Below, in pieces: positions 14,826 through 25,458 of a DNA stretch of 64,000 nucleotides. Position 1 is the first letter of the stretch. Each line of letters starts with the position of its first letter. The position numbers and the translations under genes were made by a program. Source of the DNA: Methanomassiliicoccaceae archaeon (GTDB lineage Archaea; Thermoplasmatota; Thermoplasmata; Methanomassiliicoccales; Methanomassiliicoccaceae); NCBI GenBank assembly GCA_963728405.1, contig CAVSJV010000007.1:305817-369816 (forward strand). Reading direction: 5' to 3'. The notes beneath the pieces were generated by a model. The model was not told the DNA's origin. It ran no database searches and saw only the letters and a list, made by a program, of their open reading frames with translations.

Positions 14826-16285
14826 AGGAGGTGATCCATCTGCAGGTTCCCCTACAGATACCTTGTGACGACTTAACCTACCTTGTCTAATCTAAGGTTC
14901 GTCCCCAATGAGAGACATCTTCACCAAAACAAACTCGGTTGGTTTGACGGGCAGTGTGTGCAAGAGACAGTGACATATTCACCGTTCGCTGATAACAAAC
15001 GATTACTACGGATTCCAGTGTCACGAGGCTGGGTTGCAAACCTCGATCTGGACTGAGATGGACTTTAAGGGATTGGCTTCACCTTTCGGTGTTGCATCCC
15101 ATTGTATCCCCATTGACGCGCGCGTGTTGCCCAGGGGATTCGGGCTGTACTCACCTAACGTAGCCCGCACTTTCATCCTGTTACCAAGGCAATCTGCATA
15201 TATGTGCGCCCACTCCGGAGAAGACTAGTAAATAATACATGAGGGTCTTGCCTGTTACCTGATTTAACAGGTCACCTCACGGCACAGGCTGACGTCGGCC
15301 ATGCAACTCCTCTCAGCGTGTCAGGTAAGCCCTTCAGACTGACCTTCATTCTGCTGTCGCTCCTGGTGAGGTTCACGGTGTAGAATCTAATTGAACCGCA
15401 CGCGTCACCCGTTGTAGTGTCTCCCCGCCAATTCCTTTAAGTTTCGGCCTTGCGACTATACTTCCCAGGTAGCACACTCTTCGGCTTCCCTTCAGCACGA
15501 AACCTCTCGAGGAGGTACTGATGTTTAGTGTGCAGTGTTTACTGCTAGGACTACAGGGGTATCTAATCCCTTTTGCGCCCCTAGCCTTCATCCCTCACTG
15601 TCAGAACTGTTCTCGTAAGATGCCTTCGCTATTGTTAGTCCGTCCAGGATTAACACATTTTACCGCTACTCCAGAACGTACTTCTTACGTCTCCCAGTCT
15701 CTAGCTCCGCAGTACTTCCTGCCCGCCCGACACTTGAGACATGCCAGATTTCACAAGAGACTTAGAAGACAAGCTACGGATGTTTTAGACCCAATAAAAA
15801 TGGCTGCGACTTGGACCGCGGGTATTACCGCGGCGGCTGGCACTCGTCTTACCCAGTCCTTATTCGCCAATTTTTTAGACTTGGCAAAAGCTTCACAAAG
15901 TGCAAGCACTCTGGCTCAATACTGTCACGCTTTCGCGCATTGCGAAGTATTCCCAACTGCTGCACCCCGTAGGGCTGGGAATAGTGTCTCAGATTCCCTC
16001 TCAGGGCCTCTCCGCTAAGAGCCCTTACGGATCACGGGCTGGTGGGCCATTACCCCGCCAACAACCTAATCCGCCGCAGCCCCATCCTTAGGCACGAGTT
16101 TGAGAGATAAATCATTCCAGGTTAGATTCTATCAGGTATTATCCTCAGTTTCCCGAGGTTATCCCTGACCTAAGGGTAGGTTAGCTACGTGTTACTGAGC
16201 AGTTCGCCGAGACCTTACCGTCTCTCGACTCGCATGTCTTAATCGTATTCCAATAGCGGTGGCCGCCGGCAGGATCAACCGGAAT
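14826..16285 (-). rRNA. rrs: 16S rRNA (archaeal), not linked to 23S
   Basis: 5' ATTCCGGTTGATCCTGCCGG, CAGCCGCCGCGGTAATAC, AAACTTAAAGGAATTGGCGG, 3' GGATCACCTCCT. Confidence 0.99.
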
Positions 16286-16589
16286 CCATTCCTTAAGCAA
16301 CAGAAGTTGCCGTCAGGACACACTTATAGGTTGGCAGGATTCTAAGTTTCACCAGCGTAACCACGCTGTGATATTATTCCTATTTCTTGCATTAATTGGG
16401 TTACATTGCATCGAACTGTCAGAACCAAGAGAGCACGCGTAGATGATTACGCGGAGATCTTAGTTCTCCATGTCATTATCCGAAGCTTTTGATACGATCG
16501 CATCATAGCCGGCCTTTCGACCGTCGCTCTGGACCGTCCCATTGCTTCAGTTGCTGTCTAACGCAGCTTTCCCTCAAATACAGATGTTG

Positions 16590-16816
16590 TATATAAGCAT
16601 TTGTATGCTCGGGTTCTGCGTCATGCACAGATGTGTATGTTATTCTTCCACATCCGGGCCCTTCCACCTAAAACCGAAGTCATATATAAGGGTTTTCATA
16701 CTTGATGAAAGCCCTTTTGACCCCGATTACAGTGTATGGGAGATATGTGTTCTTAGTGATTCCATATCTCACAGCTAATTCACACTTAAAACGCTATCAT
16801 ATATAAACTTTACTGT
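16590..16816 (-). promoter_or_regulatory. Three tandem BRE/TATA promoters upstream of 16S
   Basis: Minus-strand aaatgCTTATATA (16590-97), aaaaccCTTATATA (16683-90), gtaaagTTTATATA (16800-07). Confidence 0.65.
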
Positions 16817-17117
16817 AGTCCTGCGGCGCCTGTAGATTCTTAGACCGCAGATAAGAGGCACTGCATTGTTTTCCGGCCCGGTTACGCCGGCTTGAGCAGT
16901 TACAGAGTTATCGATCATATTGCGCTTAAACCTTTGAGATATCTGAAGAGATATGCCTTTCCTACGGCCGAGATTATATCATAATATATAGTTGCGGAGG
17001 GGAACCGATTCATTGTATAATGGGGATCGTTCGATGAATGGCGGCCCCTACTATCTATGGCCTCAGAAAGTAGCCACAAAAAAGTTTAAAAGGGGCGTAT
17101 CATTGTGTGCCATCAAA

Positions 17118-17204
17118 GCGGAGGTGGCCCAGCTCGGTAAGGCGCAGGATTGCTAATCCTGTGACCTCACGGTCTCGGGGGTTCAAATCCCCCCCTTCGC
17201 GCCA
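17118..17204 (+). tRNA. tRNA-Ser(GCT), CCA encoded; integration target
   Basis: Cloverleaf; CAGGA-TTGCTAA-TCCTG anticodon arm; long variable arm; G73. Confidence 0.97.
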
Positions 17205-18237
17205 CTATACATATCCACTCACCTCGAATCTGGATTCAATTTTGCGGTTTTTTAGCATCTGGGTAGCTCATTTTGCCATGAGAGAGCTGCTGAGCTTCCC
17301 TGTTAGCGACCTCTTGCTGCTTGCGGCAGTACATACGTTTCTGTGGTCTTCGTCGTCGCGTAGCCCACATGACCGAAACGGAATTCAGGCCCATATTCTG
17401 ATCTATGTTCATCTGCCCGAAAGTCCTCCGGCAATCCGTAGGTCGAACTTGATGCTTGTTTCGCTCTCGACGAGCCGTTTTAGCTTCTCTATGCCATCGG
17501 TCGAGAAGTGGCCGCCCTCCTGGTCCATCGTGGCTGGAAAGGGGGCCTGGTTCATCGGACATTTCTTCTCGATGTGTTTCTTCCTCGCTCGGAGATGTCT
17601 GGTTAATAGTTCGTGGGCCTGTTGGTCTGATGGCGACCATCCTGGGCTCCCCATAGCTACCCTCGCCCTTAAACGTGCTCGACATAGATGACCCAATCCT
17701 GGGTATCCAGGTCGCCCACATTACTGAGGCGCAGACTCCTTAAACCGCAGGCTTAGAACATGGGGCTAGGACCAGGTTATCGAATATGCTTTTATCCTAG
17801 TCCAGTCCGTTCCCTCTACAGTCTTGGCCTCCGCAATGATTCGGTGGAAAATTCCCCTGCCTTCATCGGTGGCAACATTCCAGGTGCTCTTCTTCGGCCT
17901 TGCTTCGGGGATATCTTACCTTGCACTGCTGGACCGCTCGTATTTCCGACGAACTGAAGCACGACTATCCAGACACTGTAATGTTGTGGCTGATGGCCGT
18001 TCCTTTCAGACCCTCTGGCTTTTGTTGAGAGCCGATATATTGCAGAATATCCTCGGCGGATATCTTCTGCGGGTCGTAGGAAGAAATTTTGCCATTGCCG
18101 TACAGCGCGTTCTCAAATCCTTTTCCATCCGTCGGTATCTCCTTCGAACCTCTACCATCGTGGATTCGGCGTACACAGTTCCCGATCACAGCGAGGTATT
18201 TCTTCGCCTTCTGGGTCAAGAAGGGATATCGGACCAT
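17205..18237 (-). pseudogene. Tyrosine recombinase/integrase, heavily frameshifted
   Basis: Pieces MVRYPF, SYDPQKISAEDI, KGEGSYGEPRMV, CRRTFGQ, ATTKTTE; colinear with the tRNA-Ala integrase. Confidence 0.8.
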
Positions 18238-19239
18238 ATCCGCGCTCCTCCTTTCCCTGCCAGCCCCGCTATTGACCACGGAAGGTTCCTTGCCGCAAGG
18301 CTGACGCCGGGCATTTGAACACTCGGAGCCAGGAATGAACGTCCTCGGTAATGAGCAGCCTGTTTCCGCGTTCGTTGAGCCTAGAATATCCTCTAAATTA
18401 TGTACATCGGTATCATTGACACTTACCACTATCGTCCGGACTCCTAACCACCGGGATCACGAGCACCATTTTCTCAGAATATAATTATGCCTTTCAGACG
18501 CAGGGCAATCTTTCTTGTGGTGGTAGACTTGATTAGTGGTAGTGTTACGCCGGAGATTAGCTCAACACGGTGAGTTGTTTATCTAGAGATAGTTGGGGGT
18601 GGTATGTAATTCGTTTGTTGGGTTGTGATGGTGCTTCTCAGGCTAGGTCCAGGCCGGATTTTTGGTTGTACGGAGAATCCGACTCGGACACTTAAAAACC
18701 TGGACATGATTATCAATTGTTTGCGAAATTGGCGGTCGGCAACGGTGGGCTCACTTAGTTTTCCGATAATTGGGCAAGCCAATCTCCCAAACGATGTACA
18801 TCGCCAATAATGCTAAGAACAATTACCAGATAGGAACCCAACCAAGAGTCCAGAGGCCGCATCATCCAGCTGGGGCTCGAAGTCAGATTATCAGTACAAC
18901 CATTATCGAGGTAGTAGCCATGACCTCAATTATGTACGATTTTAGCTTGGTCGAGTCACCTTCGGTCTGTTCCTTGGTCAGTGTTACCTTTGTGTTTGCG
19001 ATAGGCATCAATGGTCAATCTGCTAGGAAAACTAACCATCTTCCCGGACCCATAGATGAATGCAAACAGGGATGCGGCGATGATGCTCTCTGAATGATTG
19101 CCGTTTCCGCAATAAGCGTACTCATGAGGCTTGGTGTTTTATCGCAAGGAGCGAAATAGGGGTTTGCTAACATGGGTTGTTAAAAAAAAAGGTCGATATT
19201 GACCCCCCGAATATTTGGGTCTGAGTTAGGACCGTTCTT

Positions 19240-19661
19240 TATGGAATCCATGTCACCTGAGCAATCCCAAAGGAAGTCGATTCCTTGAGCACTTGTCCAT
19301 TCATCGAGACGATTTGTACTGTAATCCAACTCATTGACCCAATACTGGAGATGGCATTCAGCCACCACAGGGTTGCTCGTTGAGGACCTCGTGAATACTA
19401 CACAGTCTTTTCGCCGCTGCCGATCCACGTGTTCATGCCCCCCTGGTCGCCGTAAACTCCTGACCAGCTACCCGTGCATTTGACCACAATCTTCACCTGT
19501 TTGCTATTCGCTGCGCTCGCCAGCGATATAACAAGGATAGCAACAACGAGAATGGCAATAAGGCCGATGACAATCTTGTTCGAGTCTGCTTCTTTGAGAG
19601 AACCTTTCTTCTGAGGATATGGTGACTCTCGATTTTGAGGCCGTAGTGGTTGGTTCTCCAA
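19240..19661 (-). pseudogene. Small membrane-anchored hypothetical protein, frameshifted; 3' end approximate
   Basis: One TM helix followed by KIVVKCTGSWSGVYG. Confidence 0.45.
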
Positions 19662-20010
19662 TTATATCCTCGGTATCCGAAATATATCTGACGGTATAAA
19701 GATACCGAACCGATTTTCTCAACTAACAATCTCAAGTCGCTGGCACCTCTGACCGTTTGAGCCCTGTGGGTGGCCCTACGCCCGATGTTAGTGGAATATT
19801 CATCAAGGCGTAGGAAGTCCTCGTCGTTTATCCAAACGAGCCCGCCGACCTCGCCGCTGCACTGGCAGGCCATCCCGTGTCTTACGGCCCTTGGGGGCCC
19901 GTGGGGCTGCATCACATGGAAAGAGCATACTTTGACCCAGGATGGAAAGTCAGGATAAGTGATACGCTAAGACCGGTCTAAGGGCCGAGCGACCTCAAGC
20001 GTTCAAAGCT

Positions 20011-20794
20011 CTACTTCCCCATCAGGTATGCTCTCATTCGTTCGTAGAATGCAATGGAGGGCACCTCTATAACCGCCCCATCAACGGGGTCCATGATAAT
20101 CTCGAACTCCGACGATATGGTCACCAGATCGCTATCGGTGTTCAATTTCTCGCTGGGCATGCGAAGACATGAGGCTGGAGAGTCCTGTCCACCTGGTTCT
20201 TAAGAGCCATGCCAATATCCTTATTGCTACGAAATGGCCGGGGGTAGGGCAAAGATTGAATTACGGCCCCCCGGGTTGCGTACCGGGGTCGGTTTGTTCG
20301 CACTCAGATATGGCATCCTTCAGCTCCTTTAGTCGTCCAGCATCGAGGTCAAAAGGCGGGTCCTGCCAATCTATGCTGCCATCTGACTCTTTTGGATTCA
20401 CTAGGTCGATCAAATTCTTGACCTGCTCCTGCTGAACCGGGTTAATCGCCTCAGGGGCGATATCAGAAAGAAATGGCAACTGAGCCCTGGTGCCGATAAT
20501 GCTCATGTCCTCGTTGACGCCGTTATTGGCCAGACTGACTTAGGGCATCGCCAGGTAGATGCCCTTCTTCCCGTCCGCAGACGATAAGGGAGCCGGATGC
20601 GGGGATTGCTAACGATATTGGCTATGACTTTCTTCGATGCCCAGGTTGGCGGAGCGCAGATGGCCCACCATACCGTAGCGTTCAGGCGAAAGAACAAACC
20701 TGCCCCTACCCACAACAGCTATGGCCACAGGCGATTTCATAGAACCGAGGACATAAGACCCCGGAACGGGCGGCCAAGGGGATTGAAGCATCAT
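20011..20794 (-). CDS. Stand-alone MtrA-like corrinoid protein with MtrB-like C-terminal segment; several indels
   Basis: Joined frames read WPPVPGSY..SPVAI..ANLGIEKVIANIVSNPRIR.LIVCGREEGHLPG..NGV..IIG...LPF; tail LVTISSEFEIIMDPVDG. Confidence 0.8.
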
Positions 20795-20863
20795 GGATAA
20801 ACTTCGGATGGTAATCGTTCTACATGCCAATAAATCCACAGTGAATGGGCGGGTTTCTTCAGA

Positions 20864-21228
20864 TTACTCCTTCTTCTCCATCTCGACTTTATCGCCTCAA
20901 ACCCTTCCTCTACATTTGAGAATATGGTTGAAGCCATGGCGAATCTTGCAGTGAGAACTGCCTCACCGATCTCCCTGTTCGTCAATCCCATGTGTTTGCC
21001 TACCTTGATGAAATACTCGCTGCATTGCTTGTTCTGCAGAGCCGCCGCCACAGAGATCATTATGAGCTGTTTGTATTTTGGTGGGATTTCAGGCAAGCTC
21101 ATAACGAATTTTCCTTCTTGCGCTTGGCGCTCGATCCATTCCGGCATTACTTTTGAGGTGAGGATCAGAGGATTGCATACCTCTCCGCTGTTCTTTCCCA
21201 TCTCTCTCAAAATCTTATCAGCGTCCAT
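20864..21228 (-). CDS. Carboxymuconolactone decarboxylase/AhpD-like protein
   Basis: IPPKYKQLIMISVAAAL...C...G.T.REIGEAV; probable true stop at 20864 after restoring one base (..EMEKKE*). Confidence 0.75.
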
Positions 21229-21465
21229 GAGAGATCAATGAGATCAAGATGCTAAAGTAAGCTAGCATGATGGCTAACTGCCATCACTGCTCTTTCTTCT
21301 TTCAGATCTTATTAATGAATAAGCATCAACCTATCCATCTGGATTCGAAGTAGATAGGTGCCACAAAGGAATTAGGAGAGAATCGAATATTCCACAAACC
21401 ATAGTAAGGAATAATGACATATGACATTGTTCCCCTTAACTATCAAACAGCCCCAATGGTGAACC

Positions 21466-22040
21466 ATGAGGATAGGCATACTAGGCTGCGATGCACTTCG
21501 GAACGAGATCGAGGTCATCACTGCGGGCGACCCAGAGGTCTGCCGTGAATATCTGGAGTTCGGGCTCCATTTACATGCGGACAATTTAAAGCAGATCATC
21601 TTGGAAAAATCGGAATCGTTGCCTTGTCCAGGTCGATGTGTTTTTCCTTGGCTATGGTCACTGCCGCGCTTAAGGCCTTCCGGAACAATTCAAGGTTCCG
21701 GTGGTGATGATGGAGCGTGGACTGCATCGCCGCCCTGCTGACGACCGAGAGGTACCACGCTGAGAAGCATAATGGTGGGATCACATGGTTCTATCCAGCC
21801 GGCTGGGCAAAATATGGGGTGCCAGGCATCATTTAACTATTCGAACTGGACCGTATCGGCTCCGAGGACTATCCTCCTGAATACTTCCTCAAGATGATGT
21901 TCGACGGCTTTTCCAGGTGCCTGTTCATCGACAACGGCGTGGACTGTGCCGAGCAGTGCCGGAAGAACCTGCAAGCAGTTCGCCGGGATCCTTGGGCTTA
22001 GGCGTGAGCGAACGAGCGGGTCAATCACACCTAATTCAAG
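21466..22040 (+). CDS. DUF1638-family protein, multiply frameshifted; 3' end approximate
   Basis: GILGC..L..E, LEFGLH, LGYGHC, DCIAALL, TWFYPAGW, MFDGFSRCLFID. Confidence 0.7.
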
Positions 22041-22354
22041 ACGCTTGGCTCAATACTTAAGCTAGAGCAAAGGGCGCTCGAACATGTGGACAGAGCAGAA
22101 ATTTTAGGGCGCGACTAAAGAGGTTTGTTGCAGTACGCACAGGTATCACGGTATTGTGGGTTGCCTCGCTTACAGGGGCACTGCTTCTGCTGATCTGACC
22201 GAATAAGAAGGGGTGTCCACACTCCGAGCACCTCGCAGCTGCCTCATCGCTCTTGGCATGACATGCGGTGCACTCCTTCAAGTTCTATCCCCTCTTCCAG
22301 CATAATGAACCTTCTGAGTCTCCAATAAGAGAGTAATTTCCCTTATGCCATTAG

Positions 22355-22970
22355 TTACACACTCGGGGTCGTGGACAGAGCTGGCTGCTCAGCCCTCAAT
22401 CTGAAGAACGCTATCGCCAGCAGTATCATTGCCACCCACAGCAGAATTAAGCCTATGAGTATTATCGTTAGTATTGCTCCAATCAGGAGAATCAGTCCGC
22501 TTGTAGCAAACATGGCGATACCAGTTCTCTGAGCAAGCGTTCTTAACGATTTTCTTATAAAATACGCGGCCAAGACGGTTAGTGCAAACAGAATGACCAA
22601 GGCTCCGATCATTGCCGCGAAGTAAGGCGCCAATGCATCATAGTTCAGGTTATTCCAGTCTATTCCCTGCCAAGCAGCCGGGTCAGACCAACTAGACATC
22701 GAGAGACCGATCTGCGTTAGCGCACCAGCAGCGGCGATACCGATTATAACGGCGGCGATCACAACACCCACGACAAATATAATGACGCCGTTTAGCACGT
22801 TTTTTGAAGATACTTCGATCTTTGTAGTAATCTGCCAAGCCATGGAAGGCAACCAACAATAGCACCAGGCCAACTAATCCCAGAACATTACCGGATGAAC
22901 CGCCAATCGGGCTAAAGACCATAAAGAGGGCCCCAATTAATCCGAATATTTTGCTTGTCTCAAGGGACAC
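22355..22970 (-). CDS. DUF996-family membrane protein; one frameshift near 22800
   Basis: KIFGLIGALF, LADYYKDRSIF, TGIAMFATSG, ILLAIAFF. Confidence 0.75.
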
Positions 22971-23164
22971 AAAGAGCCTCCTTACTGGCTTTCATTGTCG
23001 ATTATTAGGTAACCTGTTCTTTTAAAAATATTTCGCTGGCCAAGCCGAACTTCATATTGTCAGCGTGTCCAATCGACTGGCATCTGGGTAGCCCCGAAGC
23101 ACATGGTCAGGGGCGAATGGTTCGTGGGAACGGCGGGCCCGGTCAATGTCGCCTATATACCATG

Positions 23165-23324
23165 TAGATATTGTATTGAATTGCATCCATCGTTAGAGAA
23201 GGGCGCTGGTCGATCGCACCAAGACAGGGATCGATGCAAGGGACGAATCGATCCGCCCCAGGGGGCTCCGGCATGAACGATGCCGACCTAAGAATCCCAT
23301 GAACCTCATTCATGGGGGTGTCTA
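23165..23324 (+). mobile_element. Probable degraded IS200/IS605 right end (omega-RNA-like remnant)
   Basis: AAGAATCCCATGAA-cctca-TTCATGGGGGTGTC hairpin resembling IS605-family right ends, preceded by two more hairpins. Confidence 0.5.
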
Positions 23325-23552
23325 GAAGTTAACCGAAGCACTGACATTTTTGCATCCGACTCGCATCTTATGATCCACCGGTCGCCCCATCGCTCCTTCG
23401 GATGCGAGTCCAGAGATCACAAATGTGATGGGGAATGATTATGTGATATCAACCGGAAGTCCACACAACGAGGCTTTAAAGTTATAGAAATGATGAGGCG
23501 ACGAGAGGCAATGAAAGAACGGTAAGCCGCTCCCCCGCAAGCCGGTCAGCCC

Positions 23553-24062
23553 GTGGCCCCGGCAGGTCCAGCACCCATGGGAGGCCCGCAACGCTATACG
23601 ATGCGGGAGCAGATGTTCTCTATTGGAGACGATTTCTTCATCCAGAATGGAGCAGGTCAGAGGGTTTTCCGGATCGATGGGAAAGCCCTTCGGATACGCA
23701 ACACTCTTAAGTTCGATGACGTGCAAGGGCGGGAGCTGGCTGCGAACCAGGAAAGGAAGGCGGCCATCAAGGACACTATGACAATGGAGCGAAACGGTCA
23801 GCCTTATGCCGTGATCAAGAAAGCCATGATAACTCCCGTACGGGAGAGGTCCACCCTCAGCATGCCTGGAGGGGATATCGAGATCAAGGACAATATTGCG
23901 GACCACGAATATACCTTCGAGCGGAACGGACGCGTTGTGGCCGAGGTCGGTAAGCGTTGGCTCCGGATGAGGGATACTTACACCATTGATGTCCATCTCG
24001 GAGAAGATGATATCGTGATTCTGGCCGCGGCGGTCGCCATCGACAACATGGAGCATTCTTGA
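23553..24062 (+). CDS. LURP-one/Tubby-C-like protein
   Basis: FSIGDDFFI, IDGKALRIR, VAEVGKRW, RDTY. Confidence 0.85.
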   Translation: MAPAGPAPMGGPQRYTMREQMFSIGDDFFIQNGAGQRVFRIDGKALRIRNTLKFDDVQGRELAANQERKAAIKDTMTMERNGQPYAVIKKAMITPVRERSTLSMPGGDIEIKDNIADHEYTFERNGRVVAEVGKRWLRMRDTYTIDVHLGEDDIVILAAAVAIDNMEHS

Positions 24063-24408
24063 GCCCCCTAGATCTCGCAGGGCGGTGCCCCATCTCATTA
24101 GGTCGGGTCGCAATACTGATCGGGATATTGTGACTTTGATCGATACTGCCATGGTGACCCGCCCCCTTCAATAATTCTAGAATATATTCATCGGGACAGG
24201 AAACCCTCAAACGCTCCCCGATCGTAGGCATTAACGATGTTGAGTTAGAGTGCCCTCCAGATCAAAGCTCCGAAACCGCAGGCTCCCCGTGCTGGCCTGT
24301 AGCTATATATATGTGGCGGCTGGAAACACAATAACATGATGCGTGAGGGCTGGATGCGCCCCGAATCTGTGGAAGGGGCTTTGAAGGGGCTGGAAACGGG
24401 TTGCTAAG

Positions 24409-25458
24409 ATGAAAGCGATCACCGTTGAACCAAAGAAACCAGGGACCGCTCGACTGGAAGACATCCCCGAACCGGATCCGCGGAACGGCTCAGTGCTTGT
24501 GGAAGCCGTCGCCGTCGGAGTATGTGGGACCGATGTCGAGATCGTTGAGGGAAAATACGGCTGGGCACCTCCGGGGAAAACTAGGCTCGTGTTGGGGCAC
24601 GAATCGCTCGGCCGCGTGATCGATCCCGGGCCGGCAGCAGGGCTTAAAAAAGGGGATTTTGTGGTGGGAATCGTCCGGCGTCCCGATCCGATTCCCTGCT
24701 CGAACTGTGCGGTGGGGGAGTGGGACATGTGCCGCAACGGTCAGTACACCGAACGGGGCATAAAGCAGATCGACGGTTTCATGTCCGAGCGGTGGAGGAT
24801 CGAACCCGAGTACGCGATGAAAGTGGATCCGACACTGGGGATCCTCGGGGTGTTGCTTGAGCCGGCGACAGTGGTCGCTAAAGCGTGGGAGATGTTGAAG
24901 GCAGTAGGTCAGCGCTCATTCTGGGAGCCGCGGAATGTGCTCGTGACCGGCGCAGGGCCCATTGGCCTTCTCGCGGCCTTCGGCGGTGTGCTGAACGGAT
25001 TGGATGTTCATGTTCTGGATCGCGTCGCGTCGGGTCCCAAGCCCGATCTGGTGAAGGATCTCGGTGCTACTTATCACTCGACGACCGTTTCGAACTTAGG
25101 CTTCGAACCGGACATTATCATCGAGTGCACCGGTGTGGGGCAGGTCATCGCCGAATCCATTCACAAGGTGGCAGCTGGCGGCATCGTCTGCCTCACGGGT
25201 GTCGGTGCGGGTGGCCCGGCCCCTGCGGCAACCACGGCGGACACCGCAGCAGCGGCGGTGCTCAAAAATAACGTCATAATTGGAAGTGTGAATGCCAACA
25301 AGAGGCACTGGTACAAGGCAAGCGTGGCCCTGACCCACGCGGATCCAAGGTGGCTGGGGCGCCTAATAACTCGTCGAGAAAAACCGGAGAATTTCAAACG
25401 GGCCCTGGAGCGTGAACCCAATGATATCAAGGTCATCATTCAATTCTCTGACATTTGA
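24409..25458 (+). CDS. Zn-dependent glucose 1-dehydrogenase family (MDR)
   Basis: GVCGTD, LGHESLG, CxxC..WDMC, TERGI, GAGPIG, GSVNA. Confidence 0.85.
   Translation: MKAITVEPKKPGTARLEDIPEPDPRNGSVLVEAVAVGVCGTDVEIVEGKYGWAPPGKTRLVLGHESLGRVIDPGPAAGLKKGDFVVGIVRRPDPIPCSNCAVGEWDMCRNGQYTERGIKQIDGFMSERWRIEPEYAMKVDPTLGILGVLLEPATVVAKAWEMLKAVGQRSFWEPRNVLVTGAGPIGLLAAFGGVLNGLDVHVLDRVASGPKPDLVKDLGATYHSTTVSNLGFEPDIIIECTGVGQVIAESIHKVAAGGIVCLTGVGAGGPAPAATTADTAAAAVLKNNVIIGSVNANKRHWYKASVALTHADPRWLGRLITRREKPENFKRALEREPNDIKVIIQFSDI

Follow-up and report, generated by a model that had tools for sequence, protein, structure and literature searches.

The window, the whole 64,000-nucleotide stretch of contig C7 that was analysed, carries on its minus strand (20011-20794) a broken gene copy whose intact form codes for a soluble MtrA-like corrinoid protein of the 'GREE-GH' type, as assigned by alignment to a paralogue and by the Pfam MtrA model. 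As assembled, this copy is a pseudogene and contains no open gene. The explanation that we consider probable is that it is a duplicated gene, decayed or unreadable as assembled, whose original encodes a soluble MtrA-type methyl carrier, in a family whose MtrB-like tail would peg the carrier onto an MtrH dimer.

An intact paralogue is encoded on the same contig, 186 kb from the window copy (gene at C7:139987-140754, 255 aa). Window positions 20008-20851 match it at C7:139929-140757 with 86.39% nucleotide identity over 845 nt (blastn). This paralogue and family members elsewhere are intact homologues such as the sequence-only reading had suggested looking for. That reading had also joined the minus-strand frames into a hidden working gene for a protein of about 255 aa without a transmembrane anchor. 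The joined frames are present, with the tail motif at 20065-20127, and both the length and the missing anchor are true of the intact paralogue; the window copy itself, however, is broken about ten times as assembled and is not a hidden working gene. Compared with the paralogue its coding region has 10 insertions and no deletions (net +16 nt): single nucleotides near 20634, 20592, 20541, 20443, 20244, 20182 and 20167, two nucleotides near 20430, three near 20413 and four near 20260, the last of which generates a TAA. Read through, the stretch scores 38.7 bits against Pfam MtrA (E 1.2e-9) and contains one TAG and one TAA. Scored singly, the three ORF pieces reach 20.7, 11.2 and 16.1 bits, each below the cut-off of 25 bits.

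The pieces of the window copy are spread over three frames, and it is because of the insertions that the N-terminal part, the histidine-bearing piece and the tail are found in different ones. The N-terminal part of the cobamide domain (MMLQSPWPP...NLGIE) spans 20635-20794 on the minus strand; it lies in ORF 20609-20839, which accounts for the 20.7 bits at profile positions 5-58, and its bounds were taken from the paralogue alignment. The piece with LIVCGREEGHLPGDAL and the cobalt-ligand histidine is located in the third frame between two 1-nt insertions (20542-20591, minus strand), according to the sequence and the indel alignment. The remainder of the cobamide domain follows at 20261-20540 on the minus strand, as placed by the paralogue alignment and by ORF 20261-20506 (16.1 bits). 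Owing to a compensated +1/+2 shift, other residues stand here in place of the conserved RFRxQ stretch, which includes the invariant R118 and Q122, and the piece terminates at the TAA (20261-20263) from the 4-nt insertion. The tail ORF (20011-20160, minus strand) codes for 49 aa beginning MPSEKL, a three-strand segment followed by a C-terminal helix, and over 51 aa it shares 94.1% identity with the intact paralogue (residues 205-255). Inside it, at 20065-20127 on the same strand, lies the motif LVTISSEFEIIMDPVDGAVIE, which resembles the MtrB N-terminus when the tail family is compared with 87 MtrB sequences in hhalign. The blastn match and the alignment also show that about 57 nt upstream (20795-20851, minus strand) were duplicated along with the gene.

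The sequence-only reading had placed the gene on an island, and this is borne out: the locus is an island-like, low-GC, gene-poor stretch with a decayed integrated element beside a tRNA-Ser. The GC content is 0.47-0.53 versus about 0.57, and the ORF cover in the 5-kb bins at 320k and 325k of C7 is 0.48 and 0.44 versus a genome median of 0.93. The tRNA-Ser (GCT; 17118-17204, plus strand; ARAGORN) is the likely integration site. Close to it is a tyrosine integrase remnant in three frames (17239-17740, minus strand), for which blastx matched only residues 198-349 of a 372-aa paralogue that itself scores 40.3 bits against Pfam Phage_integrase. The upstream neighbour of the MtrA-like copy is an ORF of the carboxymuconolactone decarboxylase (CMD) family (20791-21228, minus strand; Pfam CMD 34.3 bits, E 2.4e-8), the end of which runs into the duplicated stretch. 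Further on lies a broken DUF1638 gene (21463-21962, plus strand): blastx against the genome's own 215-aa DUF1638 paralogue on contig C5 found paralogue residues 2-62 in frame 3 and residues 56-169 in frame 2. Pfam DUF1638 matches the C5 paralogue and, weakly, the window piece.

Compared with the intact paralogue, the window copy has a dN/dS of 0.148, 19/13/58 differences at the three codon positions and no nonsense substitution; therefore it evolved as a working gene through most of its divergence. Together with indels that are all insertions, this selected-gene pattern would also be compatible with assembly consensus errors, in an island with poor coverage or strain variation; the gene would then be intact in the organism, which would have three working soluble MtrA paralogues. 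Such a pattern, with 58 of 90 differences at third positions, is indeed unusual given ten neutral indels, the adjoining genes are frameshifted too, a split PALP gene is also present in the stretch around the intact paralogue, and the islands of both copies are among the seven lowest 5-kb bins genome-wide by ORF cover. However, the remaining genome is clean, its median ORF cover indicating that the assembly is not generally noisy, and the insertions lie outside homopolymer runs. The integrase remnant is truncated, which goes beyond mere shifting, the invariant R and Q of RFRxQ are replaced through a compensated shift, and the intact paralogue is open despite its similar island. We regard consensus errors as somewhat unlikely. 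Programmed frame changes, by which a full-length protein would still be made from the window copy, were rejected on the indel alignment and are hardly credible: the pieces do sum to a full-length protein and nothing more, but about eight shifts of differing size and read-through of the TAA would be required, the intact paralogue has none of the shifts, and the sites show no slippery repeats.

Judged by its sequences, the family is the soluble MtrA of Methanomassiliicoccales, a predicted cobamide carrier. In intact members the cobamide domain is followed, in place of the membrane helix, by a conserved extension: some 70 residues in which two helices flank a three-stranded beta segment. The two intact paralogues of this genome score 131 and 166 bits against Pfam MtrA (PF04208); their scores against the NCBIfam equivalog TIGR01111, 118.6 and 158.2 bits, are below its cut-off of 249.15. 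A Foldseek search with the whole model matched seven MtrA chains with target-normalised TM scores of 0.61-0.85 (5L8X and 5LAA at 0.81-0.84). Only the MtrA domain was matched in this search; the tail was without any match. The full-family profile run against PDB sequences yielded MtrA chains and two weak unrelated rows, and no MtrB chain at E<=10. The cobalt-ligand histidine is invariant across 53 aligned family sequences and corresponds in the alignment to His84 of 8q3v_A, an MtrA chain (M. marburgensis MtrA numbering). The window copy retains it in a separate frame, so that with the read-through score of the stretch the earlier assignment of an MtrA-type cobamide domain with a GH histidine is supported. 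No membrane anchor helix was found by hydropathy in the intact paralogues, whose Kyte-Doolittle maxima (19 residues) are 1.44 and 1.28, with a median of 1.28 over 54 family members, versus 2.89 for canonical MtrA.

The tail is in frame in the intact homologues, and it is strongly conserved: the 53 aligned sequences share near-invariant M, L, R, P, S and E residues, followed by D, P, D and G. Comparing the tail family with 53 MtrB sequences, hhalign gave a probability of 70% (P 4e-5); with 87 MtrB sequences the probability rose to 90.2% (P 1.5e-6, 23 columns). None of 200 column shuffles reached the hhalign score in either test. The controls remained at 0.9% (MtrG-like) and 0.5% (MtrF-like), and the alignment was confined to the first 28 MtrB positions. 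This profile-profile match argues for a specific likeness, the beta segment of the tail having the sequence pattern of the MtrB N-terminus. In the AlphaFold model the tail forms three short strands; residues 1-23 of MtrB are described as a three-stranded sheet (PMC12774963). The extension has no hydrophobic helix, and thus the stalk helix and membrane helix of MtrB are absent from it.

Other searches mostly miss the tail, and in this respect the earlier claim that it matches the MtrB N-terminus is only partly upheld. A genome-wide scan with Pfam MtrB (PF05440) came back empty at E<=10, also for the intact paralogues. An HMM of the MtrB N-terminus run over the 22,557 ORFs of the genome was not enriched for tails: the window tail ORF ranked 12th (E 8.6), and the intact paralogues were outside the top 12. 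In the opposite direction, a tail HMM run over 3372 ORFs of the retrieved loci matched, outside the family, only three MtrB N-termini. The tail profile run over 1.84 billion representative sequences gave 18 matches at E<=0.001, none of them MtrB; 15 are family members or fragments, and the remaining three, which are long or repetitive, include one whose sequence was retrieved and consists of unrelated repeats. None of these 18 matches could be established as a tail on its own or in a different fusion. The short ones resemble contig-edge fragments, and one begins with an adaptor-like MCIRDR.

The sequence-only reading had further proposed that the tail recruits a stand-alone MtrH. Modelling of the tail with two MtrH copies, using the tail of the other paralogue and not of the window copy's type, gave ipSAE values of 0.89, 0.89 and 0.90, compared with 0.15 for the best of three controls. 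For the ipSAE mark, the reference rates (58 of 80 solved complexes and 2 of 110 mismatched pairs attain it) are only a rough guide here, where custom alignments were used. The runs share at least 98% of their contacts, and partner pLDDT is at least 83. The modelled tail occupies the MtrH dimer interface, with contacts to both copies at residues 1-6, 161-170, 210-218 and 295-296; these are regions of MtrH to which the published MtrB site also maps. In the solved cryo-EM structure of the M. mazei Mtr complex MtrB binds at the MtrH dimer interface, and the interface involves Asp5 and Arg211 of MtrH and Glu9 of MtrB (PMC12774963). MtrB Glu9 aligns with the conserved Glu of the tail. The complex score may be driven by likeness to the solved Mtr structures.

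The gene content fits the recruitment proposal in part. The genome (93.75% complete) has McrA and a single MtrH, on contig C17; MtrB and MtrE were not found in it. The paralogue on C17, an MtrA with the C-terminal extension, is encoded next to this MtrH, whereas the window copy has no MtrH beside it. In other genomes MtrH lies directly downstream on the same strand in 15 of 20 tail-bearing loci, the other five having no same-strand MtrH next door. For the 'GREE-GH' type, to which the window copy belongs, five of six other loci have no same-strand MtrH directly after the gene. An MtaA-like gene is located next door in this genome and in one of the 20 loci elsewhere; because it occurs only in these two places, it was rejected as a conserved partner and general feature. 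Hydantoinase/MutL-type ORFs were observed near the genes in two loci. Two Methanocella loci that were full-length tblastn matches encode canonical MtrA beside MtrB, without the tail, and were rejected as members.

The likeness between tail and MtrB could also be convergent or coincidental, since the match spans just about 23 columns. The extension would then serve to cap the B12 domain of the same protein or to hold another partner, such as the MtaA-like methyltransferase or an ATP-dependent reductive activase. The HMM searches, weak or blank both ways, would agree with this, as would the compact monomer model (pTM 0.86, pLDDT 88.7), in which the tail could be packing against its own domain. 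The five tail-bearing loci without an adjoining same-strand MtrH, the hydantoinase/MutL-type ORFs, and a segment that is C-terminal here and N-terminal in MtrB point the same way. Against it stand the specificity of the profile-profile match, with both controls below 1% and no shuffle reaching the score, and the MtrB N-termini as the sole outside matches of the tail HMM. The modelled interface moreover coincides with the MtrB site on MtrH (PMC12774963), and MtrH directly follows the gene in three quarters of the tail-bearing loci (15/20). We consider convergence unlikely. A bolder interpretation of the likeness is that the extension is a true evolutionary remnant of MtrB, its MtrH-anchoring arm, which was retained and grafted onto MtrA when the sodium-pumping membrane portion of Mtr disappeared in the ancestor; this would have yielded a self-tethered, membrane-free MtrA-MtrH2 methyltransferase. 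We put it forward tentatively, with confidence well short of that in the pegging role. A simple fusion of neighbours fails as an explanation, since mtrB is upstream of mtrA in the loci retrieved and the tail is C-terminal in MtrA.

If the tail is an MtrB-type peg, the system might work as follows. The protein, by prediction a soluble methyl carrier of the MtrA type with a corrinoid (vitamin B12), is typical of Methanomassiliicoccales, an order not known to have the membrane Mtr complex. Just as the MtrB N-terminus pegs the MtrH dimer to the stalk in the membrane complex, the extension would peg the B12 carrier straight onto the dimer interface of a soluble MtrH, with one tail per dimer. MtrH could then charge or discharge the cobalt, exchanging the methyl group with methyl-tetrahydrofolate (or methyl-H4MPT), and a second methyltransferase would move it to or from coenzyme M; the MtaA-like gene next door is a candidate for this in the present genome. 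Binding, stoichiometry and the direction of methyl flow are what we infer; the broken state, the paralogy, the domain content, the tail conservation, the profile-profile match and the gene adjacency were observed directly.

On its own the window locus is of little importance: the spare copy has decayed, and the mobile element that holds it is dead. Of wider interest is the family: for Methanomassiliicoccales, soluble MtrAH is proposed to connect the folate C1 pathway with methyl-coenzyme M, either in the disproportionation of methanol or in acetate use (PMC6147122). An MtrB-type peg would explain what holds a carrier that has no membrane stalk to its methyltransferase, would offer a simple construct for the biochemistry and structure of the MtrA-MtrH half-reaction, and would bear on whether the order lost a complete Mtr complex. 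Should the extension be an MtrB remnant, it would be a molecular fossil of the order's descent from an ancestor with the complete complex, and the protein a minimal soluble model of that half-reaction.

The methyl-transfer route had been thought possibly undescribed, but soluble mtrAH genes of Methanomassiliicoccales were published in 2018 from the 'MALP' genome, with an MtrA that has an 'unusual C-terminal extension' (Speth and Orphan, 2018; PMC6147122). A methyl-tetrahydrofolate:CoM methyltransferase was proposed there for soluble MtrAH, and in its available text no function is given to the extension; novelty appears to be limited to the MtrB-like reading of the extension. Like the MALP genes, which in a methyl-reducing methanogen comprise MtrA and a divergent MtrH without mtrB-G (PMC6147122), the C17 paralogue adjoins MtrH, whereas the window copy is broken and has no adjoining MtrH. 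With the MtrB arm (PMC12774963) the tail shares the pattern V-x-I-x-(P/S)-E-(Y/F)-x-L-x-x-D-P-x-x-G and three short strands. It also shares, in our model, a site at the MtrH dimerisation interface that takes in the N-terminal end of MtrH and an Arg around 210/211 (PMC12774963; AlphaFold MtrB-MtrH interface in PMC10998594). MtrB, however, is a protein in its own right, about 100 aa long, with an N-terminal arm and a membrane helix, whereas the tail forms the C-terminus of an MtrA and has no membrane helix. Canonical MtrA (PF04208; 5L8X, 5LAA, 8Q3V, 9QTQ-9QTS) has the same cobamide-binding fold and histidine ligand; the present family differs from it in lacking the C-terminal anchor helix and the mtrEDCBAFGH operon and in carrying some 8 inserted residues around position 140. 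Short soluble MtrA-like proteins of other archaea (about 190 aa, seven loci) have no tail and no match to the tail HMM, which makes the tail a special feature of the Methanomassiliicoccales family; they are followed directly by MtrH, as in most tail-bearing loci. MtxA, from the mtxXAH genes of methanogens, is likewise an MtrA homologue without a membrane anchor and is encoded with an MtrH homologue.

The joined minus-strand reading proposed by the sequence-only reading can be traced from position 20794 to 20011 of the window, but no single open frame carries it. The longest ORF pieces are 76, 70, 81, 53 and 49 aa long. Scanned one by one against Pfam, three pieces matched MtrA with 20.7, 11.2 and 16.1 bits, under the 25-bit cut-off, and the ORF containing the tail, a conserved C-terminal extension likened to the N-terminal arm of MtrB, gave no Pfam match on its own. 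Translation through the stops yielded a Pfam MtrA match of 38.7 bits (E 1.2e-9, profile positions 5-137) that crosses one TAG and one TAA. The observation is real; in the assembly, however, the gene is broken. Elsewhere in the genome two MtrA-like genes are open, C17:14841-15254 (155.8 bits) and C7:139996-140388 (125.8 bits). In a blastn search of window 15000-25000 against the genome, window 20008-20851 aligned with C7:139929-140757 at 86.39% over 845 nt; the duplicated extent comprises the gene and approximately 57 nt upstream, no further. This C7 paralogue, here called the twin, is an open 255-aa gene (fetched locus L002, 1492-2259).

Pairwise alignment with the coding region of the twin revealed ten insertions and no deletions in the window copy, a net gain of 16 nt. 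Single nucleotides are inserted near 20634, 20592, 20541 and 20443, two near 20430, three near 20413, four near 20260, which make a TAA, and single ones again near 20244, 20182 and 20167. The CGREEGHLP piece lies in a separate frame of its own, and a compensated +1/+2 pair replaces the RFRxQ stretch, including an R and a Q that never vary in the family. Projected on the intact frame, 32 of 255 residues differ from the twin. Since dN/dS is 0.148 (dS 0.41, dN 0.06) and the differences are distributed 19/13/58 over the three codon positions, selection has acted on the window copy over most of its history. No nonsense substitution distinguishes it from the twin, and ten insertions without a deletion or a nonsense substitution are odd for natural decay. 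Consensus errors of the assembly would also fit the insertions, none of which is located in a homopolymer run. We regard a real pseudogene as roughly twice as probable as an assembly artefact.

Across the genome at large the reading frames are clean: the share of a 5-kb bin occupied by ORFs of at least 120 aa has a median of 0.93. The bins of the window copy (C7 320k and 325k, 0.48 and 0.44) and of the twin (C7 135k, 0.33) belong to the seven bins with the lowest share genome-wide. GC content is 0.47-0.53 at window 14-24 kb compared to about 0.57-0.59 on either side, and 0.37-0.47 around the twin. A tRNA-Ser(GCT) gene is located at 17118-17204, and directly beside it, reaching up to 17740, lies the remnant of a tyrosine integrase in three frames, which corresponds to part (residues 198-349) of a 372-aa paralogue of the Phage_integrase family on contig C13. 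The stretch also contains a CMD-family ORF (20791-21228) and a DUF1638 remnant in two frames (21463-21962, plus strand), of which contig C5 encodes an intact 215-aa paralogue (L168 1551-2198, minus strand). The GC-low and ORF-poor region at about 14-24 kb looks like a decayed integrated element, and the proposal that the gene is carried on an island is therefore fair. The island of the twin also contains broken genes; a PALP-family gene nearby is split between two frames, as ORFs of 148 and 168 aa (L167 8565-9532, corresponding to C7:141564-142531, minus strand).

The interest of the locus comes from the MtrA family and not from the broken window copy. With the twin as query, 370 proteins were found at E<=0.001 among 684 candidates. 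Among the matches listed, the first 61 clusters span most of the query; 53 of these went into the alignment, which omitted the eight shorter ones (P0010-P0016 and P0056). The assignment to MtrA is solid: in addition to the read-through match, the cobamide domain matched MtrA chains of the PDB (E 6.5e-50 to 6.4e-37), a Foldseek search with the family model returned 5L8X, 5LAA and 9QTR with TM scores of 0.81-0.85 (normalised to the target), and the invariant histidine of the family falls on His84 of the 8q3v chain in the alignment, a residue named HisA84 in the accessible text of the structure paper (PMC10998594). The protein lacks a membrane helix, the hydropathy maxima being 1.44 and 1.28 compared to 2.89 in a canonical MtrA. 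The tail following the MtrA domain is strongly conserved in the 53-sequence alignment (QMLRMPSExLST...VSxEFxVILDPVDGxV..VPSVEFAxRLxxYLRG). The AlphaFold model (pLDDT 88.7, pTM 0.86) places helices at 189-204 and 242-252 and strands at 219-222, 227-230 and 235-238 in it. Two types can be told apart. The GREEFGH type includes the C17 paralogue, which is encoded between an MtaA-like URO-D gene and MtrH; the GREE-GH type is one residue shorter and includes the window copy and the twin. A distant family member (P0257, 255 aa) has CGGEILGH and the tail ISPEFTVFLNPVLG, which resembles the MtrB PE(F/Y) pattern more closely than do the tails of Methanomassiliicoccales.

The N-terminal MtrB pattern given in the sequence-only reading proved correct when checked on MtrB proteins from methanogen loci, taken as the ORF upstream of mtrA. 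Comparing a 52-residue tail alignment with 53 MtrB sequences from Methanobacteriales and Methanothrix, hhalign gave a probability of 70% (P 4e-5, 20 columns); with 87 sequences, additionally covering Methanomicrobiales, Methanocellales and ANME/Methanosarcinales, it was 90.2% (P 1.5e-6, 23 columns). In neither test did any of 200 column shuffles of the MtrB alignment attain the real score (maximum 25.1 vs 28.5 in the first, 22.5 vs 34.5 in the second). The adjoining stalk subunits, used as negative controls, remained at 0.9% (MtrG-like cluster) and 0.5% (MtrF-like cluster). When the whole protein was the query, the top match to MtrB was the same tail segment (63.5%). Run over the fetched loci (3372 ORFs), the tail HMM matched 23 family ORFs; its only matches beyond the family were the N-termini of three MtrB proteins (L133, L137 and L152; E 1e-3 to 9e-3), from a total of 39 MtrB ORFs in the set. 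Other searches speak against the likeness to MtrB. Pfam MtrB had no match in the genome at E<=10, and an HMM of the MtrB N-terminus, run over its 22,557 ORFs, ranked the window tail ORF 12th (E 8.6), with the intact paralogues outside the top 12. No MtrB chain appeared in the PDB sequence search with the family, and none of the 18 tail-profile matches in 1.84 billion representatives is an MtrB. The likeness is that of a short motif, significant profile-to-profile and borderline or invisible sequence-to-profile.

The genome assembly spans 2.73 Mb in 18 contigs, is 93.75% complete and encodes McrA and one copy of MtrH; MtrE was not found in it. The closest homologues are from Methanomassiliicoccales MAGs. 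We analysed 20 tail-bearing loci from other genomes (L087-L105 and L111). MtrH lies directly downstream on the same strand in 15 of them, two (L101 and L111) have a short divergent MtrH on the opposite strand (266-267 aa, 82.7 and 84.8 bits), and in three (L098, L102 and L104) MtrH is absent within 4 kb. It is the GREE-GH type that lacks an MtrH directly after it, with the exception of L095 (2909-7668, a Methanomassiliicoccaceae MAG), where a GREE-GH copy stands in tandem before a GREEFGH-like copy followed by MtrH. A serine hydroxymethyltransferase gene comes soon after this MtrH, which may point to a connection with folate-type C1 metabolism. A TehB-like SAM methyltransferase is encoded near the GREE-GH type in L098 (2541-3965), L101 (4771-7326) and L111 (4777-6794), and DUF169 in L098 and L101; the gene set of these three loci is distinct from the MtrA-MtrH pair. 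Apart from this genome, only L105 has the MtaA-like neighbour. On C17, the cluster of MtaA-like, MtrA-like and MtrH genes is followed some 3 kb downstream by another URO-D/MtaA-like gene (L169 10406-11467, minus strand). Hydantoinase/oxoprolinase-type ORFs (Hydant_A_N, Hydantoinase_A and a weak MutL match) are located near MtrA-like and MtrH genes in two genomes (L169 7286-9664, minus strand; L101 7773-8315), and could be candidates for an ATP-dependent reductive activase of the corrinoid protein.

The suggestion of an undescribed route does not stand as such: the accessible text of Speth and Orphan (2018) already reports a Methanomassiliicoccales genome that has mtrAH but no mtrB-G (PMC6147122), and that of Zinke et al. 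reports mtrAH in many related MAGs (bioRxiv 10.1101/2020.03.09.984617). A published link between the MtrA extension and MtrB was not found in the open-access main texts searched. The MtrB-like docking is the valuable part of the claim; it is backed by independent computations and unproven.

For M. marburgensis, the accessible text describes the MtrB arm as disordered and its binding to MtrH as predicted (PMC10998594). In the cryo-EM structure from M. mazei, MtrB residues 1-23 build a three-stranded sheet, by which the MtrH dimer is held at the dimerisation interface, with salt bridges between Arg5 (MtrB) and Asp5 (MtrH) and between Glu9 (MtrB) and Arg211 (MtrH); Methanomassiliicoccales and fusions are not mentioned there (PMC12774963). 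We modelled two copies of the MtrH of this genome together with the MtrA-like protein encoded next to it on C17 (residues 185-256), using our own alignments. The ipSAE values were 0.89, 0.89 and 0.90, compared to 0.15 for the best of three controls; 58 of 80 solved complexes attained the ipSAE mark, as did 2 of 110 mismatched pairs, counts that are only roughly valid here. Contact agreement between the runs was at least 98% and partner pLDDT at least 83. In the model, tail residues 208, 211-225, 227, 229, 231-238 and 246 contact both MtrH copies, at MtrH positions 1-6, 161-170, 210-218 and 295-296. Part of its likeness to the published MtrB binding mode may come from the predictor's memory of solved Mtr structures, and the model supports binding of the tail to MtrH, short of showing it. 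MtrH Arg210 is nearly invariant, and the conserved tail Glu224 aligns with the MtrB glutamate of the PE(Y/F) motif. Together with the model contacts, the prediction thus reproduces, for the tail on the MtrH dimer, the published binding mode of the MtrB arm on MtrH from M. mazei.
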